Position numbers and translations under genes: made by a program
In this document: one piece after another, positions 9,001 to 60,394 of the stretch
Layout of the letters: the number at the start of each line of letters is the position of its first letter
Position numbering within the stretch: the first letter of the stretch is position 1
Source of the DNA: Raillietiella orientalis
Lineage: Eukaryota
Assembly: GCA_036172245.1 (NCBI GenBank)
Contig: JAYWIR010000009.1
Coordinates: 1 to 64,000, forward strand
Direction of reading: 5' to 3'
DNA length: 64,000 bases
Notes under the pieces: model-generated
Database searches by the model: none
Told to the model about the DNA's origin: nothing
The model's input: the letters and a program-made list of their open reading frames with translations, nothing else

Positions 9001-9395
9001 GCCTCGTGCTGCGTCCGAGGCATCGTGGCGGCATGGAGCGACACCAACAAGGAAGAAGTGGGTGAACACGCGAGGGATGTCATCCCATATGAACAACGCT
9101 TCTTGCGGAGAGCTGCTGGATGGCCCCAACTGGGGAATCTACGGATGGACCTCGAGGGCTTCCTTCAACGGATGGGCCCTCCTCTCTGCGAACAGTGATC
9201 CCTTCCCTGCCCCCCAACCTCACTTGTTTGTTTGCCTTTTTGTTTTTATTTTTTTTTTCCCCATCCCCTTTCGCTGCCGGGGAGTGCCACGCCGGGCTGC
9301 GTCCCGGTAGGTCCCGTGCATAAGGCCGTGAGCGGGGCCTGGTACCGCAATTGTAGAGTTTTTTATAAATAAACGCCCCGGGCGTATCCGGGTGG
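6062..9395 (+). mobile_element. Family B copy 1, 3' part (rest of APE, RT, zf-RVT, 3' UTR)
   Basis: Continues the frame of 1-158. Contains the 862-aa ORF 6610-9198. Ends AATAAACGCCCCGGGCGTATCCGGGTGG (9368-9395). Confidence 0.92.
6610..9198 (+). CDS. RT plus zf-RVT portion of B1 ORF2 (open, but the APE end is disrupted)
   Basis: KAPGEDG, WRPIT, DLHKAFD, RQGDSLSP, YADD, KYLG, CVRCG..H...C. Confidence 0.85.
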   Translation: MLDDQGRECSSPASVRHLVRSFYSSLYAREPPDRNASRRLLPDGAPATGEEEMESLDEPFTTGEILAGIKRLKRRKAPGEDGLPAEFFQSFAEKLAPLLLKLIRLIRDEGDVPASFRSARVRLLPKGGDLRNLKNWRPITIVNTDATLIAGLWASCLGQVAESVISPEQTYAVPGRSMDANLFFASTWVHLQRREKKGIGKVGNPTLGPPAGLERDPRAGKGALALAVDLHKAFDSVDQELLFELLGRMGFPPSLISYLRSCWRNAMITVCFSGQKVYGVPVRRGIRQGDSLSPLLFSTYFGLMLRAYRVTLAPLPSSCPGTPAVAAYADDLLLLLPMSTLAKAVGDFFDLLSRGTGLKVNRAKSSVVPIGAAWAGQQDWVRLGIPTARCFKYLGVPLGDYSPAEAWSSCLQKVETAIGPFLEGKFHLPERAAVWNAFAAPILRPSLFVCPSTVESKKRMKDLLRIALWGKGRPRFPLKDLCAPRRDGGLGLLTLERVEKQLRWRTVAIAAKMWCTPWCTPARLLASSMSRCDGLASFLLSRVRKLRRCGLLLGRMATLAKENSWMVCCPANSPVWLEENIGTWAVVNQTSYETWNRLRCSPYDRCTLRNLLKSPARCTWAETTSLATALPFLKRALHSSRTPRWQVSCCIEGREKLISGWTTGELADVTTPSVQPRGLRRCGELLAIPMDVLKWPPLLQESRILPLKWKESALLLLHWGLPCNTRRSHWTRGVVDPACVRCGERESLSHLIVDCAALRPLWERFGTILGLPTGSSPRDVLRPLIVEDALHPAAALAASCCVRGIVAAWSDTNKEEVGEHARDVIPYEQRFLRRAAGWPQLGNLRMDLEGFLQRMGPPLCEQ

Positions 9396-10783
9396 CAACG
9401 CCGAAACCTGTAGGGAGACGGTTCAGGGGAAACTGGTCGCAGAACTCGCGGACTGAGCTCTTCAAGTGGTCCCAGTCCGCGAGCGACTGCATATGGAAGC
9501 CTTGCAGGAACGAGCGAAGATGTTGCGCTGCTCCTGCGAGGCGCAACGAGTCCCCTGGCAAACGCCACGCTGTGGAGGGTGGACCTTTACCGCGCGGGTG
9601 TATTTCTAGCGCGAGCCGTGGATGGTCGGAAAGTTCGGATGGCACTGCCCCACGATTTCCCACCCGCGAACACAGGTGGTTGTCGAGGAACATGTGGTCG
9701 ATCGTCCTCTCCGTCCCGGCGTCACCGGCCAACAAGTTGCGCGCGTGCATGGCAGCGCACATCTCGTTGACCAGCTGTGCGCGAATGTCGGGCGCACCTG
9801 CCAGCAGGCGGACGTTAATGTCCCCGGCAATGAGGTGCGCCTTTTGCATGTCTGCTTCGGCCAGCCAATCTCGCCGCAGGCCTTCGAAGAACGCAGTGCG
9901 TTCCCCGCGCCTGTGGCTTGTGCCGGGCGCGTACACGTTGGTCACGACGAGGTCGATCGCGTCGGACCACTTGTCGACCAGCTGCCCGATTTGACCTTCC
10001 CCGTCGAAGTGCACGTCGCGCAGCGCATTAACGACGGCTGGCTTCAGCATGAAAGCCACACCGCGGGTGTGGTCTCTCCCGTTCTCGTATATGAGCCGCC
10101 CGCCTGCGATCCGTTCGATTTCTTGGGCCTCCCCTGCGTGGAGCACGTGCGTCTCCTGCAGAATCACCAGGTCGAAGTCCCGCAGGCTGGCGGCCACTTC
10201 TCTCCTCTTGCCGTCGTCGCGCAACCCGTTGACGTTCCAACAGATTACGCGCAGTCGCCGGCAGGAGGAGAGTCCACGCGTTGGTGTGTTTATTGTGCTT
10301 GCTTACCGTCCTCCGCCTGCTGTTCAGCAGGCGGGAGTTGTGTATCCATTGCGACGGGCTGCTGCTCGCAAGGAGGCTGTCCGTCGGTGGTTGTGGTGGT
10401 GGTTGGAGGATCCTGCTTGGCCAGGGACGTCTCCGGCGAGGAGTCGCGAGAACTCGCGGACATCGCCTCCCCGTCGTCGTGGTCCGACCGCATTTCCTCC
10501 TCCGCCGGTGGAGGTGCGGAGCGCCGCGGGTTGCCTACCTTGCGGCCCGCTTTGCGCTTCGGGAGAGCGACAGCCGGAGCGTTGCCGGGTTCGGCTTCGG
10601 ACTCGGAAGTCTTCGGTCCTTTCACCTCAGCCGGACGCCTCAAGGCCTTCTTCTGGGCCTTGGGAGGCTGCTGGAGCATGGCTGCCAACTCTTCCGCCGC
10701 CTTGTTGAAGTCCCGGTCGTCGCTGCTCACGCTGGGCTCGCGACTTTGTCGCGGCATCGGCGTTCGCGCGTCGGCGGGTTGTT
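9396..10783 (-). mobile_element. Internal fragment (ORF1 C-terminus plus APE), probably element F, cut by B1 at RLPTGFG and by C1 in ORF1
   Basis: ORF 9220-10224 has LQETH, NVYAP, GDIN, IDH, SDH. ORF 10290-10757 is an ORF1 tail with the AAEELAA motif. Confidence 0.8.
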
Positions 10784-11039
10784 CACACCCGGATGTGCCG
10801 GGGCATTTATTTCATAGAAATAAAATTACAGAAAAATGTCGCGTGGCGAACTTGAAGGTTCACCACTCCAAAACAGCTTGCTGGTCACCGGCTCCGTGCC
10901 GGAGAGGTCCTTCCGATGCGCGGGGATGGGAAATAAAGAAAAACAAAAAGAAACAAAAAGTTCAAATGTGGGGGGGGGGAACAAATGTTCTAGGGTTGGG
11001 AGGGAAGGGAAGGGATCACGGTGCGCGTGGAAAGGTCCT

Positions 11040-14000
11040 CTAGATCCTATTCAGGATCCGCACAAGCTGAGTCCTTTCAGCGCCCAAGTGGCGCCACTTG
11101 CAGACACTGCGCGCGAAAACGCGAGTCCAGTGTAAGGCGTTGCCGGTTGGCTGACGCCTTCTTCTGGTGGCGTTCCAAGCCGCCACTATTCCTCTGATGC
11201 AGCAGAGGACTGCCACACTAGCGGGCGGGGACAAGGCGTCACTACAGAAGAGGCGCCTGAAAACGTCCTTTGGGCCGCATCCGCGCAAGTCCAGGATCGC
11301 TGCGAGACTATCCCATAAAGGGCGGATGGCACTGTACTCGATGAGAAGGTGGGGGAAGGTCTCTTTTTCCTTGCACCGGTCACAATAAGGATCCACAGCC
11401 CCCCGGGTTGTGTGATGAAGGCGTGCTTTAAATGGTAATCCCCAGAGTACCACAAGCAACCCCACATCCTGCTATTTCAGGGGGAGGGATGCACTGTTCC
11501 AGGACGCTGGGAGCTACTTCATCTCCTCCGGAGATAGTCCGAGTAGCTCGCCCCAGCGTCGAATTCCGTTGGGCGGGACACTCGGCGTCGCAGCGTCAGC
11601 TAGCTGCCGAGATGTCCACGCCTTTATCGATTGTGTCCTGCCGCCTATAGTGCAGGACACGGTCCATTTCCCCTGCTCGCTACTGTCCCTGGCATTCACA
11701 AGGAAGGGCAGCACTGGGGCGAGGGGGTTATCAAGGCCCACAGAAGCTTGTCGTGGGACTGCACGATCTCCTGCAGCGTCCAGCGGGCGTGCCTTTTCAT
11801 ACAAGTGTTCCTTGTGCCCGCCGGAACGTGAATCTTTACCCAGGTGGAGACTGACTCGTGCAACCAGGCGGAGTAGTTCCCTGGGAGGCAGGAGATCCAG
11901 GCGTTCTCCCGAACCGCAACAAAGATGCGTCGCAGCATAGAGCCACAGTATGGTCTTCTGCAGACGCGCGCAGACAGAAACTACAAAAGTCCGCCGATTC
12001 CGCAGGCTCGTTGGGCCAGGAGGCGTGCTGGAACGCACCAAGGCGTGTCCCACAATTCTGCCGCAAGGGCGAGAGTCCTGAATCGAAGTTGTAGTTCCAT
12101 GCGCTTTAGCGTAAGTACGCCAAGTCCACCGTCCTTACGTGGAGCGCACTGGTCTTTGAGCCTCACACGGGACCTCCCTTTGCCCCAAAGGACTGTCCTC
12201 AGGAGGCCCGCTGCTCGTTTCCGAATAAAATAAGGGGCGGGGCAAACAAAAAGTAGGGGGCGAAGGAGGGGAGCCGCAAACGCGTGCCACACCGCGGCCC
12301 GTTCCTGCAAGTAGAACTTGCCTTCTTGGAACGGACCGATCGCCAACGCTGCCTTTTGGAGACGGTCGGACCAGGCTTCTGCTGCGCAGAAGTCCCCCAA
12401 CGGTACGCCGAGGTACTTGAAGCACCTGCCCGTGGGGATCCCCAAGCGGATCCAGTCCGACCGTCCAGCCCACGCCGAACCGACGAAGACCATGGACGAC
12501 TTCGCCCTGTTCACCTCCAGACCCGTCCCGCGGCGCAGCATCTCGAAGAAGTCCGCGAGTGCACTCGCCGTGGTGGACCCGGGAAGCAGCAGCAGAAGAT
12601 CGTCTGCATAGGCCGACACGGCAGGCGTGCCGGCACACGAGCTCGGCAGGGTTGCCAGAGTTACCCTGTATGCCCTCAGCACCACCTCGAAGTAGATGCT
12701 GAAGAGCAAGGGGCTCAGGCTGTCACCCTGCCGGATGCCGCGGCGTACGGGCACGCCGTACACGTGCCGGCCGCTGAAACCGATATTGATTGACGCGTTG
12801 CGCCAGCAGGAGCGCAGGTAAGATTGAAGCACGGCATTGAAACCCATGCGTTCCAGGAGCTCCAGAAGGAGATCCTGGTCGATGCAGTCGAATGCTTCGT
12901 GCAAATCGACCGCGACGGCAAAGGCTCCCGCCGAGTCCATCGCACCCTCTGCCCGATCTTCTTGGTCAGAGGGGGGCGCGAGGCTCCCTTGACCGTCCTG
13001 TGCAACGCGTTGTCGCAACTGCCACCATGAGCTGGCGAGGAGCAGGTTGGCCTCCATGGTTCGTCCAAGAACAGCATAGGTCTGCTCGGGACTCACCACG
13101 GAAGCGGCCACCCGCCCCAAACGCTCAGCCCACAACTTGGCATACAACTTTTCGTCCGCATTCACTACTGTGATGGGACGCCAGTTGCCAATGTTGCGTA
13201 AGTCTCCTGACTTCGGCAGGAGACGTACTTTAGCTGACCGGAACGAGGCGGGAACTTCGCCGTGTTCGCGGATCAGCGCACTTAACCTGAGCACCAGGGG
13301 GGCCAGCTCTGGCGCGAAGCGATGGTAAAACTCCGCGGGCAGTCCGTCCTCCCCTGGTGCCTTCCTTCTCTTGAGCCTGTTGATGGCGGAGATGATCTCC
13401 GCCATCGTGAACGGTTCCGCCAATCTGGAACGGTCTTCCTCCTTGAGCGCGGGAGCGCCATCCGGCAGCAGGCGCTGCGCGAAATGGCGCTCAGGTTTTA
13501 GTGGCGCGTACAAGGAGGAATAAAACTCCCGCACGATGCGGCTTACCTGGGCTGGGCTGGAGCGTTTTTGGCCCTGATGATCCAGCAGGCAGGCCGAGCC
13601 TGACTGCCAGGCCTGCCTCTCCGCCTCAGCCTTGAATTCAGCCAGGCGACGGACGTCGGGACGCCGGGAATAACGGCGCGCCTGGAGGTACGCCCGCTCG
13701 TTCCTGACACCCTCACCGAAGCCTGGCGGAAGACGTTCCAGGGGAAACTGGTCGCAAAACTGACGGACTGAGCACTTCATTTCGTCCCAGTCCGCGAGCG
13801 TGTGAAGCTGGAATCCTCGCAGGAAACAGCGTAGATGTTCCGCCGCTCCTGCGAGGCGCAACCAATCCCCTGGCAGGCGCCATGTTTTCAGGGGAGGGCC
13901 CTTATTGCGCGGATGTAACTCGAACACGAGCCGTGGATGGTCGGACAGCTCTGCCGGGAGCGTTCCTCGAGTTCCCACCCGCGTGCACAGGTGGTTGTCG

Positions 14001-14596
14001 AGGAACATGTGGTCGATGTTCCGATCTCTCCCGGCATCGCCGGCCAACAAGTTGCGCGCATGTATGGCTGCGCACAACTCGTTGACCAGCTGTGCTCGTC
14101 CGCTGGGCGCACCTGCCAGCAGGCGGAGATTGAAATCGCCCGCAATGAGGTGCGCCCTTCGCACGCCTGCTTCGGCCAACCAGTCTCGCCGCAAGGTTTC
14201 GAAGAACGCAGTGCGTTTCTCGGCCCTGTGGCTGCTCACCGGAGCGTACAGGTTCGTGACTACGAGGTCGATCGAGTCGGACCACTTGAACACAAGCTGC
14301 CCAACTCGACCATCCCCGTCGAACCGTGCACTGCGCAGTGAGTTGTCGACGGTTGGCTTTAGCAGAAAGGCCACGCCGCAGGAGTTGTCCGTTCCGTTCC
14401 TCCACAGTAGCCGCCCTCCCGCGATTCTTCCGATTTCCTGGACATCTCCCGGTCGGAGAACGTGCGTCTCTTGCAGGAGCACCAGGTCGAAATCTCGCAG
14501 TATGGCGGCTACATCTCGCCTCTTTCCGTCGTCGCGCAACCCGTTGACATTCCAACAGGTGATGCGCAAGCGGCGACAGAAGGCGAGCCCACGCAC
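11040..14596 (-). pseudogene. C1 ORF2 (APE-RT open for 871 aa, C-terminus frameshifted)
   Basis: CWNVNGL, LQETH, GDFN, SDH, YADD. The tail is broken relative to the same region in C2. Confidence 0.9.
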
Positions 14597-14604
14597 TGAT
14601 GCGT

Positions 14605-16272
14605 TTATTGTGGGGTGGAGGCGGCCTCCTCCCTTGCGGGAGGCGGCTTGTTGGCGGCCGTGACGACGGTCGGCTGCTCACACGGGAGCACGTCGTCCAC
14701 AGCGACTTCCATGGGGCTGGCTTCCGAGACACGGATCGGAGAGGGGTCGCCTGGCGCGACGCACATTGCCTCCTCCTCCGTGCCCGAGGACATGGCCTCC
14801 TCCACCTGCGGAGGGGCGACCCGTCTCGGGCCACCGGTCTTCTTGCCAGCCTTCCTCTTCGGCACGGCTGCGGAAGTAGAACAACCGGCTTCGGTTTCGG
14901 ACTCGGAATTTTCCGGGCCCTTCACCGTTGCCGGTCGTCTCAAGGCCTTCTTCTCGGCCTTGGCAGGCTGCCGTAACATGGCTGCCAGCTCTTCCGCGGC
15001 CTGCGCGAAGGTCGCGTCCGTTATGCACGCCGCCTTCTCGCTTTCCGCACCGACGCTTTGCGCAGGCGCGACAGGGGCGGCTTCATCGGTCGGCGCGCAG
15101 ACGTCCTTTGCTGGCAATGCCGGAACGGCATTGTCGTCAGCTGATGGTGACGTCACTGCGGGCACGACCGGCTCAGGATCGACGGTATCGATCGCCTTTA
15201 CCGTTACTTTCTTTACGGCTCTGGCGATCGAGACGCGTTCGATCTTCACCGTACAAGCGCGAACGACCGGTTTCTGCTTTTTCGGCGCCGACTTGTTTAT
15301 CTTTTTTGCCTCCTTCTTCTGGGGCTTCTTCCTTTCTACCTTTTGCCAACCTTCCTTGTTCTCGGCGCTTTCTCCAGCTGGTTGTTCGCTGGTGGATGCC
15401 TGAGTAGCGGGTTGGTCGGCAGGGCGGGGTTCTGCCAGTTGTTGGCTTCGGTCCTTTTGCTTCGGCGTCTCATCCTTTCTCGCGCCTGACGGAACGGACC
15501 TTTTCCGGTTCGGACACATCCGCCTGATGTGCCCCTTCTCCCCACAGCCCAAGCACACGATGTTGGGGCATTTCTTCTTCAGATGCCCCGACACCTGGCA
15601 AAAGCCGCAGTATACGGGTTTCCCCACATACCACAGGTCGATCTCCTCCTCCCCGACCTGCAGTCTGTGGGGTAGCCCACCCTCGGCACGTACCGTCACG
15701 CGCGCAGCGGCGTAACCACTAAATGCCCGGGTGTAACCCAGGACATTGGGTTTTGCCCACAACGCGTGAACGGTCCCGAACTTCTCTAACGATTCTCGCA
15801 CGGCGCTCTTTGCCATGCGCATCGTTATGCCGGTCAAATGCACCACGATGGAGTTGTCCGCCGTGAACGGGAAGATCCTTCTCCCGTTCACGGTGACCGG
15901 CAGACGGAGCAGCTGCTGAGCCATCCCTGCAGACTTGCAGTTCAGCTCAACCAGCTGCCCGCCACTCCATACCGAAAGTCCGAGGAATTCGTCCTCCGGG
16001 ACTTTTAATTTTTTAAAGTCGGCCGCGAACGACCGTAAAACCGCGGGGGAGTACAGGCCACCTACCTTGTATAACAAGGCCGGGTTATACCCGTCGGCCA
16101 TGTAGGCCCGCTGTTCCTCTGCGGGGAGCGGCGCAGGCGCCGCCACCACCGCGCTCCAAGCCCTCGCCGGGGCGGGGGACGATTCCGTGGGGGAGATGGC
16201 CCCCACATCCATGGGCTGGGGGGACGAGGCTCGCTCGCCCCCCTCCGCCGTCTTTGCGGCGTCCTTGGGCAT
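14605..16272 (-). CDS. C1 ORF1, apparently intact gag-like protein (~555 aa)
   Basis: Starts MPKDAAK. CGFCQVSGHLKKKC and CLGCGEKGHIRRMC. No internal stops. Confidence 0.85.
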   Translation of the reverse strand: MPKDAAKTAEGGERASSPQPMDVGAISPTESSPAPARAWSAVVAAPAPLPAEEQRAYMADGYNPALLYKVGGLYSPAVLRSFAADFKKLKVPEDEFLGLSVWSGGQLVELNCKSAGMAQQLLRLPVTVNGRRIFPFTADNSIVVHLTGITMRMAKSAVRESLEKFGTVHALWAKPNVLGYTRAFSGYAAARVTVRAEGGLPHRLQVGEEEIDLWYVGKPVYCGFCQVSGHLKKKCPNIVCLGCGEKGHIRRMCPNRKRSVPSGARKDETPKQKDRSQQLAEPRPADQPATQASTSEQPAGESAENKEGWQKVERKKPQKKEAKKINKSAPKKQKPVVRACTVKIERVSIARAVKKVTVKAIDTVDPEPVVPAVTSPSADDNAVPALPAKDVCAPTDEAAPVAPAQSVGAESEKAACITDATFAQAAEELAAMLRQPAKAEKKALRRPATVKGPENSESETEAGCSTSAAVPKRKAGKKTGGPRRVAPPQVEEAMSSGTEEEAMCVAPGDPSPIRVSEASPMEVAVDDVLPCEQPTVVTAANKPPPAREEAASTPQ

Positions 16273-16377
16273 CTCTGCCCAGGAACAACCGCTCACAGCT
16301 GAAAACCCCGAAAACACGCGCGAGAAAAACGCGGAGCACCACAAAAGCACGTCCACCCTCTCAGGCGGCGGGTTGTT

Positions 16378-18216
16378 CACACCCGGATGTGCCGGGGCAT
16401 TTATTTCTTAGAAATAAAATAACAGAAAAAATGTCCCGTGGCGAACCCGAAGGTTCACCACTCCAAAACAGCTTGCTGGTTACCGGCTCCGTGCCGGAGA
16501 GTTCCTTCCGATGCGCGGGGATGGGAAATAAAGAAAAACAAAAAGAAACAAAAAGTTCAAATGTGGGGGGGGGGAACAAATGTTCTAGGGGTGGGAGGGA
16601 AGGGAAGGGATCACGGTGCGCGTGGAAAGGTCCTCTAGATCCTATTCAGGATCCGCACAAGCTGAGTCCTTTCAGCGCCCAAGTGGCGCCACTTGCAGAC
16701 ACTGCGCGCGAAAACGCGAGTCCAGTGTAAGGCGTTGCCGGTTGGCTGACGCCTTCGTCTGGTGGCGTTCCAAGCCGCCACTATTCCTCTGATGCAGCAG
16801 AGGACTGCTACACTAGCGGGCGGGGACAAGGCGTCACTACAGAAGAGGCGCCTGAAAACGTCCTTTGGGCCGCATCCGCGCAAGTCCAGGATCGCTGCGA
16901 GACTATCCCATAAAGGGCGGATGGCACTGCACTCGATGAGAAGGTGGGGGAAGGTCTCTTTTTCCTTGCACCGGTCACAATAAGGATCCACAGCCCCCCG
17001 GGTTGTGTGATGAAGGCGTGCTTTGAATGGAAGTCCCCAGAGGACCACAAGCAACGCCACATCCTGCCATTTCAGGGGGAGGGATGCACTGTTCCAGGAC
17101 GCTGGGGGCCACTTCATCTCCTCCGGAGATAGTCCGAGTAGCTCGTTCCAGCGTCGAATTCCGTTGGGCGGGACACTCGGCGTCGCAGCGTCAGCTAGCT
17201 GCCGAGATGTCCACGCCTTTATCGATTGTGTCCTGCCGCCTATAGTGCAGGACACGGTCCATTTCCCCTGCTCGCTACTGTCCCTGGCATTCACAAGGAA
17301 GGGCAGCACTGGGGCGAGGGGGGTTATCAAGGCCCACAGAAGCTGGTCGTGGGACTGCACGATCTCCTGCAGCGTCCAGCGGGCGTGCCTTTTCATACAA
17401 GTGTTCCTTGTGCCCGCCGGAACGTGAATCTTTACCCAGGTGGAGACTGACTCGTGCAACCAGGCGGAGTAGTTCCCTGGGAGGCAGGAGATCCAGGCGT
17501 TCTCCCGGACCGCAACGAAGATGCGTCGCAGCATAGAGCCACAGTATGGTCTTCTGCAGACGCGCGCAGACAGAAACGACAAAAGTCCGCCGATTCCGCA
17601 GGCTCGTTGGGCCAGGAGGCGTGCTGGAACGCACCAAGGCGTGTCCCACAATTCTGCCGCAAGGGCGAGAGTCCTGAATCGAAGTTGTATTTCGATGCGC
17701 TCCAGCGTAAGTAAGCCAAGTCCACCGTCCTTCCGTAGAGCGCACAAGTCTTTGAGCCTCACACGGGACCTCCCTTTGCCCCAAAGGACTGTTCTCAGGA
17801 GGCCCGCTGCTCGTTTCCGAATAAAATAAGGGGCGGGGCAAACAAAAAGTAGGGGGCGAAGGAGGGGAGCCGCAAACGCGTTCCACACCGTGGCCCGTTC
17901 CTGCAAGTAGAACTTGCCTTCTTGGAACGGACCGATCGCCAACGCTGCCTTTTGGAGACGGTCGGACCAGGCTTCTGCTGCGCAGAAGTCCCCCAACGGT
18001 ACGCCGAGGTACTTGAAGCACCTGCCCGTGGGGATCCCCAAACGGATCCAGTCCGACCGTCCAGCCCACGCCGAAGCGACGAAGACCATGGACGACTTCG
18101 CCCTGTTCACCTCCAGGCCCGTCCCGCGGCGCAGCAACTCGAAGAAGTCCTCGAGTGCACTCGCCGGGGTGGACCCGGGAAGCAGCAGCAGAAGATCGTC
18201 TGCATAGGCCGACACG
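16378..18216 (-). mobile_element. Element C2, 5'-truncated at the RT motif VSAYADD, tandem with C1
   Basis: Near-identical to C1 10784-12620, with the same 3' hairpin (16378-16405). Confidence 0.9.
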
Positions 18217-19253
18217 CTGCACGCTTTGATTGTTGGGCGTGGCGCGGCCTTCCCCTTGCCCTTCACCACTTTCGCCGGTGCGGGCGCGATTTTTTTAACG
18301 ATTTTTACTTTACGGGTGACCAGCTGCCAGCCTTCCTCGTCGGCAGTCTTTTCTGGGAGCTCCTGTACCGAGTCCCTTTCCTGCTGCGCGACTTTTGTCG
18401 GAGCCGACGGCTGATCCCCTTTTGTGGGGTTTATCACTATTTTTGCCTTCCCTTCCTTCTTTTGCGGAAGTTCCGGCATTGGAGCGACGTTCATCGAGCA
18501 CACCACTTTGGTGTGGCCCTTCGCGCCGCACGTTGGGCAAACTGCATCCGGGCACCGCTTTTTACAATGCCCGAACGACTTACAGTTTCCACAATATTTG
18601 GATTTCCCCACAAACCAAATGTCGACGAACTCGTCGCCAATTTGGAGCTTGTGGGGAAGCTGTACGCTTTCTCGAAGCGTCACGCGCGCGCCTACTCGCC
18701 CACTAAATGCACCGTTCACTCCGAAGGTGTTGGGCTTTCTCCACATCGCGAAAACGCTTGCATATTTTTCCAGTTCAGCGCGGATGGCGTTCTCATCCAT
18801 CCGCACTGTTGTCCCTGTTAGGTGGACCACAATGGAGTGGTCCACCGTGTGTGGAAGTAAATTCCTGCCCTCAAATTTTACGGGCGTGCAGAGCATCTTG
18901 TGGGTAAGAGCTGCATCCTCGCAGATGAGCTCCGCCAACTGCCCTCCGCTCCGTATAGAGAGGCAAAGAATTTCATGGTCGGCAATGCCTATCTTTTTGA
19001 TGGCATTGCCGAACTTTCGCGCCCTTAACGGGGAATATAAATTGCCTACCTTGTACAGGAGGGCCGGATTGTAGCCGTCCTGGATGTAGGATTGGATTTC
19101 GGCGGCGACATCGGGCGTTTCCGCCGCTGCCACCGCGCTCCAGGCCCTCGCCGTAGTGGAGGGTTCAGAAGAAGTGGTGGGGCGTGATCCCACCTCCTTT
19201 GGCTTGAGAGACGCGCTCTTCCCGCCTCCCTCACCTGAAACTGCGGCGTTCAC
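16635..19253 (-). CDS. Chimeric open frame: F ORF1 N-terminus fused in-frame to C2 RT C-half plus zf-RVT (872 aa)
   Basis: The junction reads PTIKACSV|SAYADDLLL. No stops in the ORF track. Confidence 0.6.
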   Translation of the reverse strand: MNAAVSGEGGGKSASLKPKEVGSRPTTSSEPSTTARAWSAVAAAETPDVAAEIQSYIQDGYNPALLYKVGNLYSPLRARKFGNAIKKIGIADHEILCLSIRSGGQLAELICEDAALTHKMLCTPVKFEGRNLLPHTVDHSIVVHLTGTTVRMDENAIRAELEKYASVFAMWRKPNTFGVNGAFSGRVGARVTLRESVQLPHKLQIGDEFVDIWFVGKSKYCGNCKSFGHCKKRCPDAVCPTCGAKGHTKVVCSMNVAPMPELPQKKEGKAKIVINPTKGDQPSAPTKVAQQERDSVQELPEKTADEEGWQLVTRKVKIVKKIAPAPAKVVKGKGKAAPRPTIKACSVSAYADDLLLLLPGSTPASALEDFFELLRRGTGLEVNRAKSSMVFVASAWAGRSDWIRLGIPTGRCFKYLGVPLGDFCAAEAWSDRLQKAALAIGPFQEGKFYLQERATVWNAFAAPLLRPLLFVCPAPYFIRKRAAGLLRTVLWGKGRSRVRLKDLCALRKDGGLGLLTLERIEIQLRFRTLALAAELWDTPWCVPARLLAQRACGIGGLLSFLSARVCRRPYCGSMLRRIFVAVRENAWISCLPGNYSAWLHESVSTWVKIHVPAGTRNTCMKRHARWTLQEIVQSHDQLLWALITPLAPVLPFLVNARDSSEQGKWTVSCTIGGRTQSIKAWTSRQLADAATPSVPPNGIRRWNELLGLSPEEMKWPPASWNSASLPLKWQDVALLVVLWGLPFKARLHHTTRGAVDPYCDRCKEKETFPHLLIECSAIRPLWDSLAAILDLRGCGPKDVFRRLFCSDALSPPASVAVLCCIRGIVAAWNATRRRRQPTGNALHWTRVFARSVCKWRHLGAERTQLVRILNRI

Positions 19254-35895: not shown

Positions 35896-35903
35896 ATTTC
35901 AAT

Positions 35904-45246: not shown

Positions 45247-45252
45247 TCGACT

Positions 45253-47465: not shown

Positions 47466-49601
47466 ATTTCCATAAGGCGTTCGACTGTGTAGACCGGGAA
47501 CTCCTTTTGGAGCTCCTGGGTCGCCTGGGCTTCCCACCCTCGTTGATATCCTTCCTGCGCTCTTGCTGGCGGAATGCGATGATTACCGTCTCTTTCAGCG
47601 GCCACAAGGTGTATGGCGTGCCGGTGCGGCGGGGCATAAGGCAGGGAGATCGACTCAGCCCCCTGCTCTTTCGCACGTACTTTCAGTTGGTGCTGAGAGC
47701 GTACCGGGTGACTTTGGCCCCCTTGCAGAGCTCGTGCCCCGGCACGCCCGCCTTATGTGTTTATGGCGATGATCTTCAGCTCCTGCTACCTATGTCCACC
47801 CCGGCGAAGGCGGTCGGAGATTTCTTCGACCTGCTCAACCGCGGGACCGGACAGCAGGTGCACAGGGCGAAGTCGTCATTGTTGCCAGTTGGTGCGGCGT
47901 GGGCAGGGCAGCAGGACTGGGTCCGTTTGAGGATCCTCACGGCGAGGTGCATCAAGTACCTTGGTGTGCCGTTGGGGGACTTCTACCCTGTGGAAGCGTG
48001 GTCCAGCTGCCTCCAAAAAGTCGAGACGGCGATCGGCTCGTTCCTAGAAGGCAAGTTTCACTTGCCGGAACGAACCGCGGTTTGGAACAACTTGGCGGCC
48101 CCCATCCTCCGCCCCTTGCTTTTTGTTTGCCCCGCCCCAGGAGTTTTTAAAAAGAGGACGAAGGACCTCCTCCGCATCGCCCTTTGGGGAAAGGGGAGGC
48201 ACTGAGACCCTTTGAAGGACCTTTGCGCTCCTCGTCGGGGCGGCGGACTTAGCCTCCTGACGCTGGAGCGCGTATAGAAACAGCTGCGATGGCATACCCT
48301 CGCCATCGCAGCGAAGATGTGGAGCACCCCGTGGTGCATTCCGGCTCGCCTCCTAGCCAGTCGTGTGTCCCGGTGCGAGGGACTCGCGTCTTTTCTTCTG
48401 TGCCCCGGCCGGAAGATCAGAAGATGCGGCCTACAGCTCGGGCGCATGGCATCGTTGGCCATGGAGAACAGCTGGATAGTTTGCTGCCCCGCCAACTCCT
48501 CCGCTTCGCTGGAGGAGAACATCGGAACGTGGGCAGTAGTGAATCAGCAAAGCCACGTAACGTGGAATCGTCTCTGAGGCAGACCCTATGCCCGATGCAC
48601 GTTGCAGAATCTCCTGGAGAGTCCAGCAAGATGCACGTGGGCAGAGACGACCTCCCTAGCTACGGCGCTGCCCTTCCTGAAGAGGGCACTTCACAGCAGC
48701 CGGACGCCAAGGTGGCAAGTCTCCTGCTGCATCAAGGGACGCGAAAAGTTGATCAGCGGCTGGACAACAGGAGAACTGGCAGACGCCACGACCTCGAGCG
48801 TCCAGCCGCGAAAACTAATAAGATGGGGCGAGCTGCTGGCCATCCCTATGGATGTGCTGAAGTGGCCCCCGCTTCTTCAGGAATCCAGGATCCTGCCCCT
48901 TAAGTGGAAAGAGTCGGCGTTGCTGTTGTTGCATTGGGGTCTACCCTGCAACGCACGCCGCTCTCACTGGACAAGGGGAGTTGTGGATCCTGCGTGTGTC
49001 AGGTGCGGAGAGCGGGAATCGCTCTCCCACCTTATTGTGGACTGTGCTGCCCTTCGTCCCCTTTGGGAACGGTTTGGGACGATCCTCGGTCTCCCAACGG
49101 GCAGTTCCCCGAGAGACGTTCTTTAGGCCGGAAGAGGGGCCGGAGACGTTCTTCGGCCCCTCTTCGTGAAGGACGCCCTGCAGCCAGCCGCAGCCCTTGC
49201 AGCCTTGTGCTGCGTCCGAGGCATCGTGGCGGCATGGAGCGACACCAACAAGGAAGGAGTGTGTCAACACGCGAGGGATGTCATCCCATATGCCCAACGC
49301 TTCTTGCGAAGAGCTGCCGGATGGCCCCAACTGGGGAATATGCAGACTGACCTCGAGGGCTTCGTTCGATGGATGGGCCCTCTCCACAGCGAACAGTGAT
49401 CCCTTCCCTGCCCTCCAACTTCTTTTAGTTTGTTTCTTTTTATTTTACTTTTTGTCTTATCCCCATCCCCCTTCGCTGTCGGGGAGTGCCACGCCGGGCT
49501 GCGTCCCGGTGTCCCGACAGGTCCTGTGTTTACGGCCGTGGTGGGGCCTTGTACCACGCATGTAAAGTTTATTAATAAACGCCCCGGGCGTACCCGGGTG
49601 A
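47466..49601 (+). mobile_element. Family B 3' part (from HKAFD), probably the distal half of B2
   Basis: Closely similar to B1 7295-9395. 3' hairpin 49574-49600. Confidence 0.87.
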
Positions 49602-49616
49602 TAACGCCCAATCCCC

Positions 49617-52600
49617 GCTGTGGTGAGCGGACGTGCTTTTCCTGCGCTCCGCCTGCGTGGCAAAGCGAGTGTTTTTTCTTCTTGAGTGATTTGTGGGTGC
49701 ACATCGTCGGTGTCCGATGGCAGCGTTGCCAGAGGACACCGCGATGGAAGTAGGCGTGATGGAGGCTTGTTCGTCCCCACAGCCTACTGGATTAGGGGCA
49801 TGCGCCCCGGAATCGTCCCCGGCGACGCCGAGGTCATGGAGCGCCATGGTGGCCGCGCCTAGCGTGGAAGCCATGGCCGAGATGGAAGCCTACAAGAAAG
49901 CGGGGTATAAACCCTCGCTAGTCTACAAGGTAGGCAACCTTTTCGATGGGCGAACTGCACGCGCCTTTACGAAGGCGCTGCAGAACGCCAATATTTTTGA
50001 AAAAGATCTCGACGGCCTCTGCGTCCTCAGCGGCGGGCAGCGGGTCGAGGTGGTATGCAAGGATATCACCTTGGCCCGACACCTGATCACCGACCCGCTG
50101 ATCGTTGATGGTCGGAAGATCTTGCCGATAACGATGGACCGCTCGGTGGTGGTCCATCTCACTGGGATCTCAAGTCGCATGACGAGGTCAGCGGTTCGAG
50201 AACAGCTTCAAAAGCACGGAGAAGTGCACGCGTTGTGGCCGAAGTCCACGATTTTCCAAGGCTACAATAGCCTTTTTGGAGGTCAAGCTGCGGCGCGTAT
50301 CACAGTAAAAGAGGGTGGTGCGCTTCCCCAGAAGCTGGAGGTCTGCCAAGAAGCGGTGGACCTCATGGTACGTGGGGAAACGCCAATTTTGTGGCTACTG
50401 CAATGCAGTGGGGCATCTACGAAAAAGGTGCCCGAACATTGTGTGCCACCTATTCGGCGAAAAGGGTCACGTTCGGCGTGTGTGCCCCAAACGCCCCACC
50501 CCGGTGCCCCCTGCCGCCAAAAAGGCTCAGGGAAAACGTGGAAAGCTGGTAGAAAGACCAACTCGCGAAAATGGCCGTTCCGAACTGCCAGCCTCCCTTC
50601 CTCCCGTACAGACGTCGGAGGAAAGAGCTGTCTTGAACGCGGAAATGGAGGAAGGTTGGCAACTGGTTCAGGCCAGAAAAGAAAAAAATAAAGAAAAAGT
50701 GATGCCAGAAGAAAAGTCGCAGAAGAAAACTGCCGGCAACAAGAAAAAAGCCACGCCGCTTTCAAAAAAAAAACAACTCCGCGAATGCTCGGTGGCACTG
50801 GAACCCTAAGCCGTTCCTGCCGAGTCCGCCCGCGGCAATGTTCGCGGAACAGCTGATGCGGACGCGATGAATACTCGCGTAGACAAGCCCATTCTACGTT
50901 TAGAGGGTGAGACGCGAGACTCGCGCGCCGACAGCCAGGACGACGCGCTCGATAAAGTCGCAGAGGAGCCCGCGGCAACGGTCGCCGCTGGCGAAGACGC
51001 GGCCTTCGAGAAAGCGGCCGAGGAGCTCGCAACAACGGTCGCCGCTGGCGAAGACGCGCCCTTCGAGAAAGCGGCGGAGCTCCCAGCAACGCTCGTCGAG
51101 CGCGAAACCCCGTCGCGCAAGGGCGTACGCAGGTCGGCTCCGACGAACATGGCCCCCGCAGGTGAGTGCGACCTCGGGGCCGGAAGCGGATCCTCCTCCT
51201 CGGAGGCACCTCCAGGAAGTCGGGACGCAAGTAACAGAAACCCAGGAGGCGCCTCCCCTCCACCAGCGAGGAGAAACCGGAAGGAAGCGGCAGCGTGGGA
51301 ATCCCGGAGGGGGAACACCCACGCCCGGAAGCCATCGAGTCGGCCACCCCCATGGAGGAGGGTGAGCAGGGGGGTGAAGTCCTCCCTGCAGTCGCGAAAC
51401 CTGAGCAGCCCGAACCCATGGAGGAGGGCGAACAGGTAGGCGCGACTCCACCTGCGGGTGATCCGGCCGACGCGGCGGCACCGATGGAGGAGGAAGAACA
51501 GGTGCCTTCAGTACCTGTCCCCCCTCCCCCTCCACCTAGCGTCCCGCCCCAGCAGGTGGCCGACGCATCATCGCCGTTTTCCCAGGACTGACACCTGGGC
51601 TCGCCAGCCGCCGTCGTATTCGCGCGGCCTGTTGTAACGTCAACGGGCTGCGCGACGACGGCAACAGGCGAGATACGGCCGACACCCTGCGTGAGCTCGA
51701 CCTGGCGCTGCTGCAGGAGATCCACGTGATTACCGCGGCAGACACCCAGAAGATCGAGACGATCGCGGGGAGTCGGTTGTATTGGCGATGCGGCCTCCGC
51801 AACACCTGCGGGGTCGCGTTCTTCGTGAAGCCGGCCATCGACGCTGCCGTAAAGGGCGTGCGGATTTTTGACGACGGTCGGATCGGTCAGCTGATTCTCA
51901 GCTGTTACGACTCGATCGACCTAATCGTCCCAAACGTGTATGGTCCCAGCGGCAAACAGGGGTACCGCGACCGCACCAGGCTGCTGGAAACCCTGAAGCG
52001 CGACTGGCTGGCGGATACCAATGTGCGAAAGGCTCACTTGATAGCGGGAGATTTCAATCTCCGCCTGCTAAGAGGTGAGCCTGAAACACAAGAGAACGCG
52101 ATGAACGAGTTGTGCGTTGCCATGCGTACGCGCAACTCGTTCCTCCCGGATTGCCAGGATGATATTCGAGGTTATGTCTCGCGACAAAGGACTCCCGTCG
52201 AGGGCCTTGCGGCTGCCTGGGGAGTGGACGCGGCTCTCAGTTGCGAAGGAACACCTTCGTCGATTTCTGAGAGGCGTCACCCTCCGGAATCTCGCTGACT
52301 GGGACCTCTTTAAGGAATCGGTCCGCGAGTTCTCCGAGCAGTTCCCCTTGGAACGCCTGCGCCCCGGATTTGGCGAGGGCCCTGGCAACCATCGGGCCTA
52401 TTTACAGGCCCTCCGGTACGAGAGAACCCTCAACGTCCGTCGCCTAGCAGAATACCGAGCCGGGGCCGAGCGCCATGCCTGGCAATCCGGGTCGGCCAGC
52501 TTGCTGGACGACCAGGGCCTGGAACGCTCGGCCCCACCCGCGATCAGGCACCTCTTGCGACGGTTCTACTCCTCCCTCTACGCCAAGGCACCCCCAGAGC

Positions 52601-55291
52601 GTGATGCCTCGCGGCTCCTGCTTCCGGACGGAGCTCCGGCAATAGGGGAGGAAGAAACCATTAGCCTCGACGAGCCTTTTAGCACCGGCGAAATTCTCGC
52701 CGGTATTAAAAGGCTCAAGAGGAGGAAAGCTCCAGGGGAGGACGGCCTGCCCGCGGAGTTCTTCCAATGCTTCGCGACAGAGTTGGCACCCCTGGAGCTT
52801 CAGTTGACCAGGCTGATCGGAGACGAAGGTGGCGTTCCCGCCTCGTTTCGGTCAGCCAGAGTGAGGCTTCTCCCTAGGGGAGGAGACCTGAAAACACTGA
52901 ACAATTGGCGTCCTGTCACAATTGTGAACACGGACGCCAAGCTGATTGCTGGGCTGTGGGCTTCGCGTGTAGGACAGGTGGCAGACTCCATAAGTAGCCT
53001 GGAGCAGACATACGCTGTTCCCGGGCGAAGTATGGATCCCAACCTGTTCTTGGCGAGCACATGGTTCCATATCCAAAAATGTCACAGAGAAACAGTGACA
53101 AGGATTGGCAACCCCACTTTGGGGCCGCCAGCTGGGCTGGGAAAGGACACCAAGGCAGAGAAGGGGGCCCTAGCGATCGCAGTCGATCTGCCCAAAGCGT
53201 TCGATTGCGTGGACCAGGAACTTCTTCTGGAGCTCCTGGATCGCATGGGCTTTCCGGACACTTTACTGGGTTACCTACGCGCCTGATGGCGCAATGCGAT
53301 CATTAACGTATTTTTCAGAGGACAGCATGTGTTCGGCGTACCGGTAAGGCGCGGCATCCGGCAGGGCGACAGCCTGAGTCCCCTACTCTTCAGCACCTAT
53401 TTCGAACTGGTGCTGAGAGCATACATGGTGACATTGGCTGCTTTGGAAAGCTCGTGTCCAGGTACGCCGGCCGTGTCGGCGTACGCTGACGATCTTTTGC
53501 TCCTGCTGCCCTTGTCCGCCTCGGCTTCGGCAGTCGAAGATTTCTTCGACTTGTTGAGCCGTGGGACAGGACTACAGGTGAACAGGACGAAGTCATCGCT
53601 GATTGCGGTTGGTGCTACGTGGGCAGGACGACCTGATTGGATCCGCATGGGGATCCCCACGGACAGCTACTTAAAGTACCTCGGCGTTCCGTTGGGAGAC
53701 TTCTGTCAGTCAGAAGCCTGATCAGGTCGTCTCCAAAAAGTGGAGTCAACGATCGGTCCGTTCCTGGAAGGCAAGCTTCACTTGCCGGAACGGGCCGCGG
53801 TGTGGAACGCGTTCGCGGCCCTCCTCCTTCGCCCTCTGCTTTTTGTTTGCCCTGTACCCCGTGAACTGATATAAAGAACAAAGGACCTCCTACGCATCGT
53901 GCTGTGGGGCGGCGGGAGGCCTCGTGTGCCTTTAAAGGATTTGCGCGCTCCACGTTGGGACGGAGGTCTTAGCGTTCTGACGATGGAGCAAATGGAAACA
54001 CAGCTGCGATGCCGCACCCTAGGCATCGCTGCAAAGACGTGGAACACCCCCTGGTGCGTCCCGGCCCGCATCTTCGCCAACCGTGTATCGAGGACGCAAG
54101 AACTAGCGTCTTTCCTTCTGTGCCCCGGTCGGAACGTCAGGAGATGCGGCGTTCTCCTTGGGCGCCTGGAATCCCTGGTGAGAGAGAACGGTTGGACGGT
54201 ATGCAGCCCCGCCAACTCCTCCGCTTGGCTGGAGGAATCCGTTGGGACGTGGGCCAAGCTGAACCTCCATACTGGACGTGAATGGAACCGCCTTGGACTC
54301 GGCCCCAACGCCTGCTGCACCCTACGGACCACTCTGGAGTGTCCCGCCAGGAGCACGTGGGCAGAGACCACCCCTTTGGCTTCGACGCTGCCCTTCCTAC
54401 GAAGGGCTCTAACCAGCGGCCGGACGCCGAAGTGGCACGTCTCCTGCCGGATCGCAGGCAGGAAGAAGAAAATGAGCCGTTGGACCATGGGTGAACTGGC
54501 AGATGCCACGATCCCGAGTGCCTTCCCGCGTGGACTTGTTAGATGGGGCGAGCTGCTCGGCATCCCGACGGATGACCTGAAGTGGCCCCCAGTATTAATC
54601 GGATCCAGGCTTCTCCCGCTAAAGTAGCAAGAGTCGGCAGTGCTCCTGTTGCACTGGGGTTTACCATGCAACGCGCGCCGCTTCCACTGGACGCGAGGAA
54701 GTGTAAGCCCTGAGTGTGCCACGTGTGGGGAGCGGGAATCGCTCCCGCACCTTCTAGTTGACCGTGCTGCCATCCGACTAATGCGGGAACGGTTCGGGAC
54801 GACCCTCGGGCTCCCAATGGGCAGCGCGTCCAGAGACGTTCTTCGGCCCCTCTTCGTGCGGAACGCCCTGAAGCCCGCCGCAGCCCTCGCAGCCCTCTGC
54901 TGCATCCGGGACATCGTGGCGGCCTGGAGCGACATTATCGACGAAGGAGTGGATGCCAACGGGAGGGAAGTCATCCCGTATGCTGTGAGCTTCATGCGAA
55001 GTGCTGCGAGATGGCCCCATCTGGGACAAACGCAGAAGGACCTGGAGGGCATCCTGCGAAGGATGGGCCCTCCTCATTATGGATAGTGATCCCTTCCCCT
55101 ACCCCCAAACTCCTTTTGTTTTCCTTTAATTTATTTTTTTTTGTTTTCTCCCAAGCTGCGCTCCACTGCCGAGGAGCGTCACGCCGGGCTCCGTCCCGGC
55201 GTCCCGGCAGGTCCGGTGTTGTGCGGCCTTTAGTGGGGCCTCGTACCACGTTTTTGTAGTTTCAATAAACGCCCCGGGCGTACCCGGGTGG
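49617..55291 (+). mobile_element. Family B copy 3, full length, decayed and mosaic
   Basis: Same 5' end as B2 (GGACGTG at 49629). ORF1, APE with uninterrupted GDFNLRLL, RT, zf-RVT. 3' hairpin 55264-55291. Confidence 0.92.
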
Positions 55292-57571
55292 CATCCCCAA
55301 ATCCCCAGGGCAAGCGGTGCACAGGGAACTCCTCGCAGAACTCGCGGACCGAGGTCTTCATGCCGTCCCAGTCTTGGAGATTCTGGAGGATGAGCCTCCC
55401 AGTACTTGGCAGAGATGTTCCGCGGCACCTCAGATGCGCGTCCAGTCCCCGAGCAGACGCCACGCCCTTGATGGTGGTCCTTTGTCGCGAGGCATAACCT
55501 CGAATATCAACCGGAAATGGTCCGATAGCGTCGACGGAAGTTTCCCTCGTCTGCCGACCCGTGGGCACGGGTCGGCGTCAAGGAAGACGTGGTCTACGTT
55601 TTAAACTATTTCCGATAGGTCCCCCAAAAAGTTGCGCGTGCGCACAGCAGCGCACAGCTCGTTGGCTGCGTCTTTTTCCCCGCAAGGCACACCTGAGAGC
55701 AGGCGGATGTTGAAATCCCCACCGATCAGATGCACTTTGCGTACGTTTGTATCCGCCGGACAGTCGTGCTTCAGGGTTTCGAGGAACCGGGAACGTTCCC
55801 GTACCCGCATCCTCCGCTCGGAGCGCACACATTGGTCACGACATCGTCGATCGAGTCGGACCACCTAAGGATGAGCTGGCCAACCCGACTGTCCTTGTTG
55901 AAGCGTACGTCCTTGACGAAGGCGGGGACTGCTGGCTTCATAAAAAAGGCGACGCCACAGGTGTTGCGAGCGCCGCATTGCCAAAACAGACGACCACCTG
56001 CAATCCTCTCGATCTCCTGGGCGTTCTCCGCGGTGATCACGTGGATCTCCTGCAGGAGCGCCAGTTCGAAGTCGCGCAGGGTGTCGGCCGTATCCCGCCT
56101 GTTGCCGTCGTCGCGCAGCCCGTTCACGTTCCAGCAGGGTACGCGGATCCTACGCCGACAGGCGAGCCCAGGTGTTAATCCTGGGAAAGTGGCAATGGGG
56201 CTTCGCCACCTTGTCGGGCTGGACGCTAGGAGGAGGGGGTGCGTCGCGCACCGCGTCTCCCTCCTCCATGGGGGACGTGTCTTCGTCAGGGCCGTGCAGA
56301 GGAACGGGCGGTTTCACCCACCTGAACTTCCTCCTCCATGGGGGTCGCCAGCTGCACGGTGTCGAGAAATGAGAGATTCCCACCCTCGCCTCCCATGCTG
56401 CCGGCTTCCCCCTCGGGTGCCAGTTCATCCTCCTCCTTGATCCGTATGCGCCTCCTGGGATTCTGGGACTTGCGTCCCGTCTTCTTTGGTGGCGCCTCCG
56501 TTGAGGAGGACGCACTTCCGGCATCCGGTTCGGCCTCACCTGCATCCGGAGCCTTCCCCGCGGCCGGCCTTCGTAAGCCTTTCCGGGAGTTCTTCTCACG
56601 GCCTTGCAGTTCTGCCTCGAGTTCTTCCACCGACTGCTGGAAGGCGGCCTCCTCGATCGCGTCGAGCGTGGCGCGCGGTTCCCCCTCTGTTTCGCCAGAG
56701 GGTTCACCATCGAACGTCGCGGCTTCGGCGGACGCGAGGGGGGGGATTGCTCCCCCGGTGGCGGCATCGGGTGCCTCCACACGTTCTAATTTTACCGAAC
56801 ACGCGCGGAGCTTTTCGCGGCACGGTTTTTCGCGCTGCGTTTTTGTTTTCCCCGCGCTTCGTTCGGGACTCCAGGGCTTTCTTCTGGGCTGTACCGTCTG
56901 CCAGCCTTCGCCGTCGCCAGCGTCGTCGGGAGTGCTCTCAACCGACGTTTGCTGCGATGGCTTAGGGACTGGCATCTGGCTCCTTACGGCCTGCTTCATG
57001 GTATTCGTCTCTCCCACCCGTTTCCCCTTTGCCTTTTTGGCAGCGGGAGGGACCGGGATTTCTCGTCTTGGGCACACCTTGCGGATGTGGCTCTTGTTTC
57101 CACATAAGTGGCATTGGATGTTTGGGCACCGTTTTTTTAGATGCCCTGTAGCATCGCAATGGCCACAATATTTGGGCTTTCCCACGTACCAAACATCGAC
57201 TTTTTCTTCGCCGATATTCAGTTTGTGGGGAAGCCCACCATTCTCCAGTAGTGTGACGCGGGCAGCGGCCATCCCACTGAATAGCTTTCCGTACGTTCGG
57301 AACACATTGGGTTCGTCCCAATACGCGTGCACTCTACTGTGTTTTGACAACTCCTCATGGACGCTGGTTTTGTCCATTCGGAGTGATACGCCCGTGAGGT
57401 GGACCACGACGGAGCGGTCCTCCGTCACAGGGAAGATCCTGCGGCCGTCCACCGTAATAGGGGTGTTCAGCAGTGGCTGCGCCAGACTTGCCTCTTTGCG
57501 TGTCAGCTTAACTCGCTGGCCCCCACTAAGGAAGGATAGGCCTAAAAGGTCCTCCTCCCTCACGTTCAACC
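55292..57571 (-). mobile_element. Element K (most of ORF1 plus APE up to RLPWGFG), probably the 5' half of G
   Basis: CGHC..GH..C, CHLC..SH..C, WNVNGL, LQEIH, GDFN. Ends at the motif where G begins. Confidence 0.85.
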
Positions 57572-58625: not shown

Positions 58626-58639
58626 AACTCCTGTTCGCC

Positions 58640-60312: not shown

Positions 60313-60394
60313 TGCATTCGAACCAGCTAAAAAAGAGTTGCTTATACAGTTCCTTACTGACGAGACAGTTCCTTCTAATGCATCTCCTAGTTTA

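Follow-up and report, generated by a model that had tools for sequence, protein, structure and literature searches.

The first 64,000 nt of contig JAYWIR010000009.1 from Raillietiella orientalis (assembly GCA_036172245.1), referred to here as the window, consist largely of long interspersed nuclear elements (LINEs) inserted into one another. We analyzed where the members of one of these families, family B, have landed. Every B terminus in the window adjoins the same base of a single coding motif of other LINEs, LPxGFG(E/D)G in open reading frame 2 (ORF2), and does so in antisense orientation. This applies to three of three B-type 3′ ends and to two of two 5′ ends (27603 and 49617). The occupied host sites are two, one in an F-group and one in a B-group element. 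All junction counts, for family B as well as for family A and for the KAFD motif described below, refer to this one 64-kb window. The original prediction held that family B "always" lands antisense at this base of the motif. The junction sequences and the phase on which it was built were found as described, and the claim holds for all B ends in the window; as a general rule, it would rest on one window.

Junctions and target-site duplication of family B

The three B-type 3′ modules are all located on the plus strand, with GGGTG ending at 9394, 49600, and 55290 (elements are designated as in Table 1). The B terminus at 9394 (...CCGGGTG) leads into GCAA and then CGCCGAAACC, the latter corresponding to RLPTGFG in host sense; the flank past the 4-nt tail reads CGCCGAAACCTGTAGGG. 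At 55290, GCAT and CCCCAAATCCCC come next, the latter corresponding to RLPWGFG in host sense, and the flank past the tail reads CCCCAAATCCCCAGGG. Read on the opposite strand, each of these two flanks terminates a frame that is or once was open, ...REFCDQFPLNRLPTGFG and ...REFCEEFPVHRLPWGFG, respectively. At 49600, ATAA and CGCCCAATCCCC lead directly into the following B copy, whose 5′ end is at 49617. The same CGCCCAATCCCC thus precedes that 5′ end, and CTCCAAATCCCC at 27591-27602 precedes the B 5′ end at 27603. In a ~5.7-kb host, a second independent insertion would strike this very base and strand by chance in approximately 1 of 11,400 cases (~9e-5).

The seven LPxGFG sites that are intact (in H0, A1, A2, A3, G, F1, and Bref) all read GGN-TTY-GGN-GA(G/C)-GG. 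At the occupied sites, the homology between H1 and F1 and between H2 and Bref stops after GGN-G. The bases past GGNG (TTG, ATG, and TTA in host sense) do not match the host AGG, and their reverse complements are the NNAA-type tails found in every family. On the 5′ side, the host resumes with GG-GGA-TTT-GGA-G-AAGGAGCTCGC. Because GCAA, GCAT, and ATAA match element tails and not the host GAG-GG, we infer that the target duplication of family B is 12 bp long, GGGGATTYGGNG in host sense. A duplication of ~15 bp, as originally proposed, was rejected, since the extra bases belong to the element's own 4-nt tail. Tandem copies separated by a spacer occur not only in B (49605-49616) but also in A (35896-35904) and F (16366-16375), and the duplications of the latter families are perfect, with 9 bp for A and 10 bp for F.

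Table 1. Elements and target-site duplications in the window
Feature	Position	Strand	Description
A1	160-6061	+	Full-length family A, sense, at the GDFN codons of H0; perfect 9-bp ATTTCAATC at 151-159 and 6062-6070
H0	6062-9398	+	B copy placed at 9368 in the original prediction; GDFN codons to 3′ end; 938-aa open frame; tail GCAA
H1	9399-10781	-	F-group host; 302-aa open APE frame ending ...RLPTGFG at 9399; continues at 18219-19362 past F1/F2
F1	10782-16365	-	Tandem pair with F2, sense, upstream of H1 ORF2
F2	16376-18218	-	Tandem pair with F1, sense, upstream of H1 ORF2
I	~21993-23183	-	5′ end antisense at the KAFD codons of N (23183/23184)
N	23184-24685	+	Host of the I 5′ end
E	24686-27602	-	B-group host, downstream half, LPxGFG to 3′ end; own tail AAAA
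5′ duplication copy in E	27591-27602	-	Host sense GGGGATTTGGAG, then AAGGAGCTCGC; 11/12 versus H2 flank
B2	27603-29991	+	B 5′ part; Bref coordinates 2-2443, 90% identity; GDFN codons cut by A2
A2	29992-35895	+	Tandem family A pair with A3 at the GDFN codons of B2; spacer ATTTCAATC
A3	35905-39577	+	Second copy of the pair
D	39578-41695	-	Element 3′ part, antisense at the KAFD codons of A3 (39577/39578); cut at its own KAFD codons by the G 5′ end
G	41696-45252	+	5′ end, ORF1, APE, start of RT; 5′ end antisense in D (41695/41696)
J	45253-47465	+	KAFD codons to 3′ end; tail AGAA; 3′ end in sense in B′ (47465/47466)
B′	47466-49604	+	B 3′ part, KAFD codons to 3′ end; tail ATAA; 87.5% identity to H0; upstream edge is the J 3′ junction
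Spacer B′/Bref	49605-49616	-	Host sense GGGGATTGGGCG; retained duplication copy; 10/12 versus H2 flank
Bref	49617-55294	+	Full-length family B; 5′ terminus with GGACGTGCTT; frameshifted ORF1/ORF2; 3′ module AATAAACGCCCCGGGCGTACCCGGGTG and tail GCAT
3′ duplication copy of Bref in H2	55295-55306	-	Host sense GGGGATTTGGGG, part of RLPWGFG
H2	55295-58640	-	B-group host, upstream half: 5′ end, ORF1 with CCHC knuckles, APE to LPWGFG; decayed, with frameshifts

Complete termini, a fixed orientation, a staggered duplication, and tandem spacers are together characteristic of target-primed reverse transcription that follows two nicks directed by sequence. It is highly probable that family B inserts in this way, by means of a sequence-specific apurinic/apyrimidinic endonuclease (APE) as in Tx1-type LINEs, with LINE coding motifs as its targets. 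The junction positions, their orientation, the divergence of the hosts, the duplication, and the tandem spacer are direct observations, and the following steps are modeled on them. The B endonuclease would recognize the DNA encoding LPxGFG(E/D)G, ~40 residues past the APE domain of related LINEs. The first nick would fall on the sense (coding) strand of the host after GGN-TTY-GGN-G, with a candidate site within GGATTYGGNGAGGG, and the 3′-OH at this nick would prime reverse transcription of a B RNA that ends with ...CCGGGTG-NN-AA. The second strand would be cut 12 bp away, presumably after the first. The product would be a B copy antisense to its host between 12-bp duplications. As most of the site is restored by the duplication, further B copies would land next to existing ones, resulting in head-to-tail arrays split by the 12-mer. 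The terminal AA suggests that priming takes place at the very start of the poly(A) tail.

In R1 and TRAS elements, target specificity is carried by the APE domain. By analogy with these elements and with Tx1L (as cited in PMC4494074), it is presumably this domain that determines the target of family B, and not some other portion of the protein or the RNA. Consistent with APE-borne specificity, the targets track the 5′/APE half of the elements. Bref, B2, and H0 share the LPxGFG target and a B-type APE with 82-88% identity, whereas the reverse transcriptase (RT) regions of H0 and Bref are only 73% identical. Over the regions compared, H0 and Bref showed 73-76% identity, B′ and Bref 73%, and B′ and H0 about 87-89%. 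The APE region of Bref is frameshifted yet alignable, and the 5′ part of H0, split off by A1, is found at positions 1-159.

Alternatively, nucleic-acid homology instead of an endonuclease might pick the site, through annealing of read-through B RNA or cDNA, template switching by the RT, or recombination. The recurrent sites in the window, i.e., LPxGFG and the GDFN and KAFD motifs described below, are indeed the most conserved stretches of ORF2, and the G/J junction at 45252/45253 contains a 7-nt microhomology. Moreover, downstream target sequence in read-through transcripts is reported to strengthen R2-/R1-type targeting (PMC4494074). The B terminus (...GGGTG-NNAA), however, has no complementarity to the flanking target, and complete 5′ and 3′ ends in antisense orientation with a staggered duplication point to two nicks and not to homologous exchange. 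The families furthermore differ in both motif and orientation. We consequently regard homology-directed site choice as unlikely.

Divergence of the host elements

A shared junction could also result from segmental duplication or unequal crossing-over. One B-in-host junction would then have been copied, and a single insertion without any site specificity would suffice. Duplications do exist in the nest, as positions 1-6070 and 29833-35904 are 94.7% identical and positions 10772-12620 and 16366-18216 are 97.6% identical. The two hosts, however, are far more divergent. H1 (9399-10302) and H2 (55295-56260) are 61% identical in a global alignment (595 of 975 columns) and 64% identical over 892 aligned columns. 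In a tree of the APE region, the strongly supported partners are F1 for H1 (79%) and Bref for H2 (75%). In eight of eight pairwise comparisons, differences are most frequent at third codon positions, exceeding those at second positions, the least variable, by a factor of 1.5-2.6; the values at positions 1/2/3 are 0.35/0.26/0.47 for H1 versus H2 and 0.19/0.14/0.35 for H0 versus Bref. This excess indicates that the lineages grew apart as active elements constrained to code, and that they are not copies of a single locus that simply drifted. Open frames would not have survived drift of this extent in a dead duplicate, but H1 has kept its frame of 302 aa. The adjoining B copies are likewise only 73-76% identical, and one of them has an open frame of 938 aa. 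Thus, simple duplication fails to explain the shared junction and is very unlikely, in agreement with the original prediction, which had considered the hosts clearly different families and duplication insufficient.

It is hardly credible that B and a transduced 3′ flank retrotransposed together as a composite unit, so that the shared junction was inherited. The pairs H0+A1 and B2+A2, discussed below, are suggestive of composites being copied whole. The flanks of family B are, however, not short tags. Beyond the tandem F2-F1 insertion, H1 reaches its own 5′ terminus at ~19362, as H2 does at ~58640, both via APE and ORF1, and E extends to its own 3′ terminus, which excludes simple duplication as well as a transduced tag. 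In addition, the clades of H1 and H2 differ, and the open frame of H1 would not have persisted in a transduced flank without coding function. An assembly artefact, with repeats collapsed or mis-joined at conserved motifs, is scarcely plausible even though repeat-dense regions are error-prone, because the junctions lie at element termini with tails and duplications and not inside shared sequence, the neighboring copies are with 60-90% identity too divergent for collapse by an assembler, and the nest parses as an ordered nesting with a single deletion.

Several points weigh against a B endonuclease directed to LPxGFG. One of them is the number of independent sites. E and H2 are probably two halves of one B-group host, as the stretch common to their ranges in Bref coordinates (H2 up to 2760, E from 2750) is as long as the duplication. 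The E flank, the 49605-49616 spacer, and the H2 flank all start with GGGGATT, and among all copies, a TGG codon at this position is present only in H2. The three flanks probably descend from one host site that carried a tandem B array. The "host" assigned to 49602 is a mere 12-nt spacer between tandem B copies. The four junction contexts of the original prediction all share the phase, but they reduce to two independent host sites in the window, H1 and the split host E+H2. The B insertion events would number at least three, namely, H0 into H1, B2/B′ into E/H2, and Bref into E/H2.

Furthermore, the 5′ junction of the H0 insertion falls outside the window, and none of the 12-bp duplications of B is perfect, the best pairs matching at 11/12 (E versus H2) and 10/12 (spacer versus H2) positions. 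Occupancy is partial, with seven intact LPxGFG sites in the window, and no sequence feature was seen there that separates the occupied sites from these seven. Searches of metagenomes, contigs, and proteins revealed no further B copies outside the window. A similar reservation applies to the A copies located within B. The 159-nt host flank shared by the two duplicated regions 1-6070 and 29833-35904 is 96.9% identical (154/159), although the regions lie beside different hosts. The 5′ junctions of A1 and A2 are thus not independent, and H0+A1 and B2+A2 may descend from one B-with-A composite, albeit in different hosts. Possibly, a disabled B-with-A composite was copied as a unit and mobilized in trans.

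A last point concerns E. In its RT region, E is closer to Bref than any other element (86% identity), yet its 3′ end lies at another site; as part of one element with H2, it would even combine a B-group APE (75%) with this deviating target. Its 3′ end is inserted antisense in the zinc-finger region of N, just before the CxxC...H...C motif (24686-24690; N 24600-24685). Target choice thus does not simply follow RT relatedness. E also carries the family A version of the 3′ palindrome; the A-like palindrome together with the different target suggests modular exchange between families.

Other families and the structure of the nest

Nested LINE sequence makes up ~59.7 kb of the window and is GC-rich (56-62%); the final 4.4 kb have a GC content of 36-48% and no long frames. 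In a Pfam scan of 11 frames, the APE domain (Exo_endo_phos) and RVT_1 were detected in the same frame in three cases, and RVT_1 in eight. zf-CCHC knuckles were detected in the upstream ORF, ORF1, and zf-RVT at the ORF2 C-terminus scored below the cut-off. CCHC knuckles in ORF1 and a C-terminal zinc motif in ORF2 are typical of Tx1/L1 elements. The combination of APE and RVT_1, the C-terminal zinc motif, and a CCHC-containing ORF1 is an L1/Tx1-type architecture. A comparison of the whole window with Rfam yielded zero matches.

One 3′ module is common to 12 3′ ends and comprises AATAAA(C/T), a short GC palindrome, CCGGGTG, and a tail of four nucleotides (NNAA). Tails listed are ATAA, GCAA, AGAA, ATAA, GCAT, AAAA, AAAA, TGAA, TGAA, and ATAA, and two variant 3′ ends are located at 21992 and 59666. 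The AATAAA signal lies ~20 nt before the 3′ terminus, TGTAA motifs occur near the 3′ ends, and no poly(A) tracts were found at element ends within the window. The TGTAA motifs had raised the idea of a green alga as the source, which was abandoned in view of the AATAAA signal and of the flank, which is non-coding with 36-48% GC. The motif GGACGTG(C/T)TT is located ~6-14 nt from the first base in eight 5′ ends, with variants in H1 and H2, and the only clear 5′ truncation in the window is that of F2. The last 30 nt are nearly identical, and the 5′ motif GGACGTGYTT is likewise found, across families that are only 55-75% identical internally (e.g., ends 6031-6061, 9367-9398, and 55263-55294). As the 5′ and 3′ ends are nearly shared across families, the elements may use one another's proteins. 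For a 3′ stem-loop, five pairs were predicted, all near-invariant and with zero compensatory changes, so that the structure is not demonstrated.

The sites of family A correspond to GDFN, the catalytic motif of the APE domain, in B-type hosts, and the insertions are in sense. A's own GDFN codons (GGGGACTTCAAC) differ from the target used (GGAGATTTCAAT) by synonymous changes only, which hints at self-avoidance.

The RT motif D-L-H-K-A-F-D is used four times in the window. D interrupts A3 at the KAFD codons of the latter. The antisense KAFD junctions of D, G, and I agree within 1 nt, and their hosts (A3, D, and N) represent three RT clades. These junctions would imply an 11-12-bp duplication, CAAGGCGTTCGA. 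The site used by J in sense lies a few bases upstream of the antisense junctions. The joint chance estimate amounts to ~6e-12.

In the tandem F pair, the perfect 10-bp CAACCCGCCG is present at 10772-10781 and at 16366-16375. The 5′ truncation of F2 lies at approximately residue 673, and its 5′ joint (18216-18219) lacks the repeat that would be expected there. Further junctions were each seen once: E in the zinc finger of N, M in ORF1 of I, H1 at approximately residue 387 of M, and O in AT-rich DNA. O (58645-59666) is a GC-rich stretch of 1 kb without ORF2 similarity, and its degenerate 3′ module lies exactly at the border with non-coding DNA of 36-48% GC (59667-64000). It may be a non-autonomous founder element or a decayed end of N. 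As a candidate for the missing end of N, O was rejected, since beyond the last 19 nt it has neither protein nor DNA similarity.

The whole window can be modeled, though not proven, as an ordered nesting with one deletion. According to this parse, N would hold I, which would hold M, which in turn would hold H1; H1 would contain F2, F1, and H0, and H0 would contain A1. N would also hold E/H2, into which B2, B′, and Bref would have inserted. B2 would carry A2 and A3, A3 would carry D, D would carry G, and B′ would carry J. The segment 27603-55294 between E and H2 would thus be a tandem B array with later insertions inside. The G/J joint (region 45206-45300) is ~40 nt out of register, and its microhomology, TTCGACT, lies just past the KAFD codons. 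One deletion at this joint would remove exactly the pieces missing from the nest.

In this nest, family B belongs to a guild whose other members use GDFN in sense (A) and KAFD in antisense (D, G, and I). More generally, it is quite possible, though we propose it tentatively, that related LINE families have divided the motifs of ORF2 among themselves as dedicated sites, with GDFN in sense for A, LPxGFG in antisense for B, and KAFD in antisense for a third group. The three motifs are located in the endonuclease, the linker, and the active-site region of the RT, respectively. Since selection keeps them unchanged in every competitor and in the inserting families alike, escape of the target by mutation is difficult. 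If such a partition is real, each insertion disables the ORF2 of a rival and adds new targets, resulting in a self-enlarging "LINE reef" in otherwise AT-rich DNA, with retrotransposons as hyperparasites of retrotransposons. Transposons would then use the constrained coding motifs of other transposons as a safe haven that is unable to escape. This would also explain how dense GC-rich LINE islands, e.g., the proposed algal centromeres, grow at one locus without damage to host genes. Site-specific LINEs are natural models for programmable RNA-templated gene insertion, and each new APE target specificity is a data point on how small nucleases read DNA. Related elements with at least three different sites on the 12-bp scale would be a compact comparative system for the determinants of specificity.

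Comparison with known systems

Beyond the window, close relatives of these elements were scarce. The A/B 3′ module (21 specified bases) gave zero matches in a metagenome scan. In genome contigs, it gave one match at the end of a bacterial-looking contig, which was judged to be due to chance; a long open frame on this contig presumably encodes phosphoenolpyruvate carboxykinase. A metagenome scan with the ORF2 alignment yielded 150 candidate stretches, of which five loci were confirmed, all of them distant (23-41% identity). In a protein search with the H1 junction peptide (residues 255-360), none of the 619 candidates scored, and a search with an ORF of the flank gave no scoring match either. 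A search of representative proteins with the H0 frame retrieved 423 proteins at E<=1e-30, but only two metagenome fragments reached 66-68% identity; the nearest database proteins apart from these were ~35% identical or less. The next match, at 35% identity, was a gene model from a turtle that contains RT pieces in repeated form and was uninformative. The Protein Atlas contained generic APE/RT clusters only. We found no report of LINEs that target LINE coding motifs in the literature searched, a search whose reach did not extend to most subscription papers and Repbase Reports, and the supplements of PMC4494074 may list Tx1 families with LINE targets.

The closest parallel is provided by the Tx1 clade, whose LINEs occupy a fixed position and orientation in DNA transposons or LTR (long terminal repeat) elements and whose tandem copies sandwich a duplication (PMC4494074). 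Examples are Tx1L in the piggyBac element Tx1D of Xenopus, Tx1-Mar in Mariner-N4_AMi, Tx1-8_Crp and Tx1-4_AMi in LTR retrotransposons, and Tx1-9_AMi in Harbinger. A review likewise lists Tx1 into Tx1D and Tourist into Tourist as cases in which one transposable element targets another (PMC6719617). The elements of the window resemble these Tx1 elements, as far as the accessible descriptions go, in being APE-type LINEs with a fixed position and orientation in another transposon, with family-specific positions and with tandem copies that sandwich a duplication. Their CCHC knuckles and C-terminal zinc motif fit as well. The targets, however, differ. Tx1 elements use DNA transposons, LTR elements, small RNA genes, and microsatellites, whereas the elements of the window target coding motifs of LINEs from their own superfamily, B's group among them. 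Moreover, at least three families split three motifs of one ORF here. The likeness to the Tx1 clade is one of shared features, and the database matches carried no clade names.

Clusters of nested LINE copies are also known from the L1-type elements Zepp of Coccomyxa/Chlorella and ZeppL of Chlamydomonas. According to the accessible parts of PMC8226300 and PMC3446292, these clusters grow by nested insertion into existing copies, and Zepp arrays consist mostly of 3′ ends owing to 5′ truncation. The nest described here is similar in its density of nested copies (~59.7 of 64 kb). It differs provisionally, as judged from those parts of the sources, in that eight termini carry the full 5′ motif and two a variant, and in that poly(A) tracts are lacking. 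In addition, divergent families each use a fixed base in the window, some of them in antisense, whereas the Zepp descriptions available to us give no base-precise target.

The APE LINEs specific for ribosomal DNA or telomeres, such as R1 and TRAS/SART, are characterized by sequence-specific APE nicking, precise junctions, and a fixed orientation. Precise junctions and a fixed orientation are features that they have in common with the elements of the window. Their targets, by contrast, are multicopy genes or repeats of the host, whereas the targets in the window are other retrotransposons. As the target is itself supplied by retrotransposons, the niche grows with each insertion.

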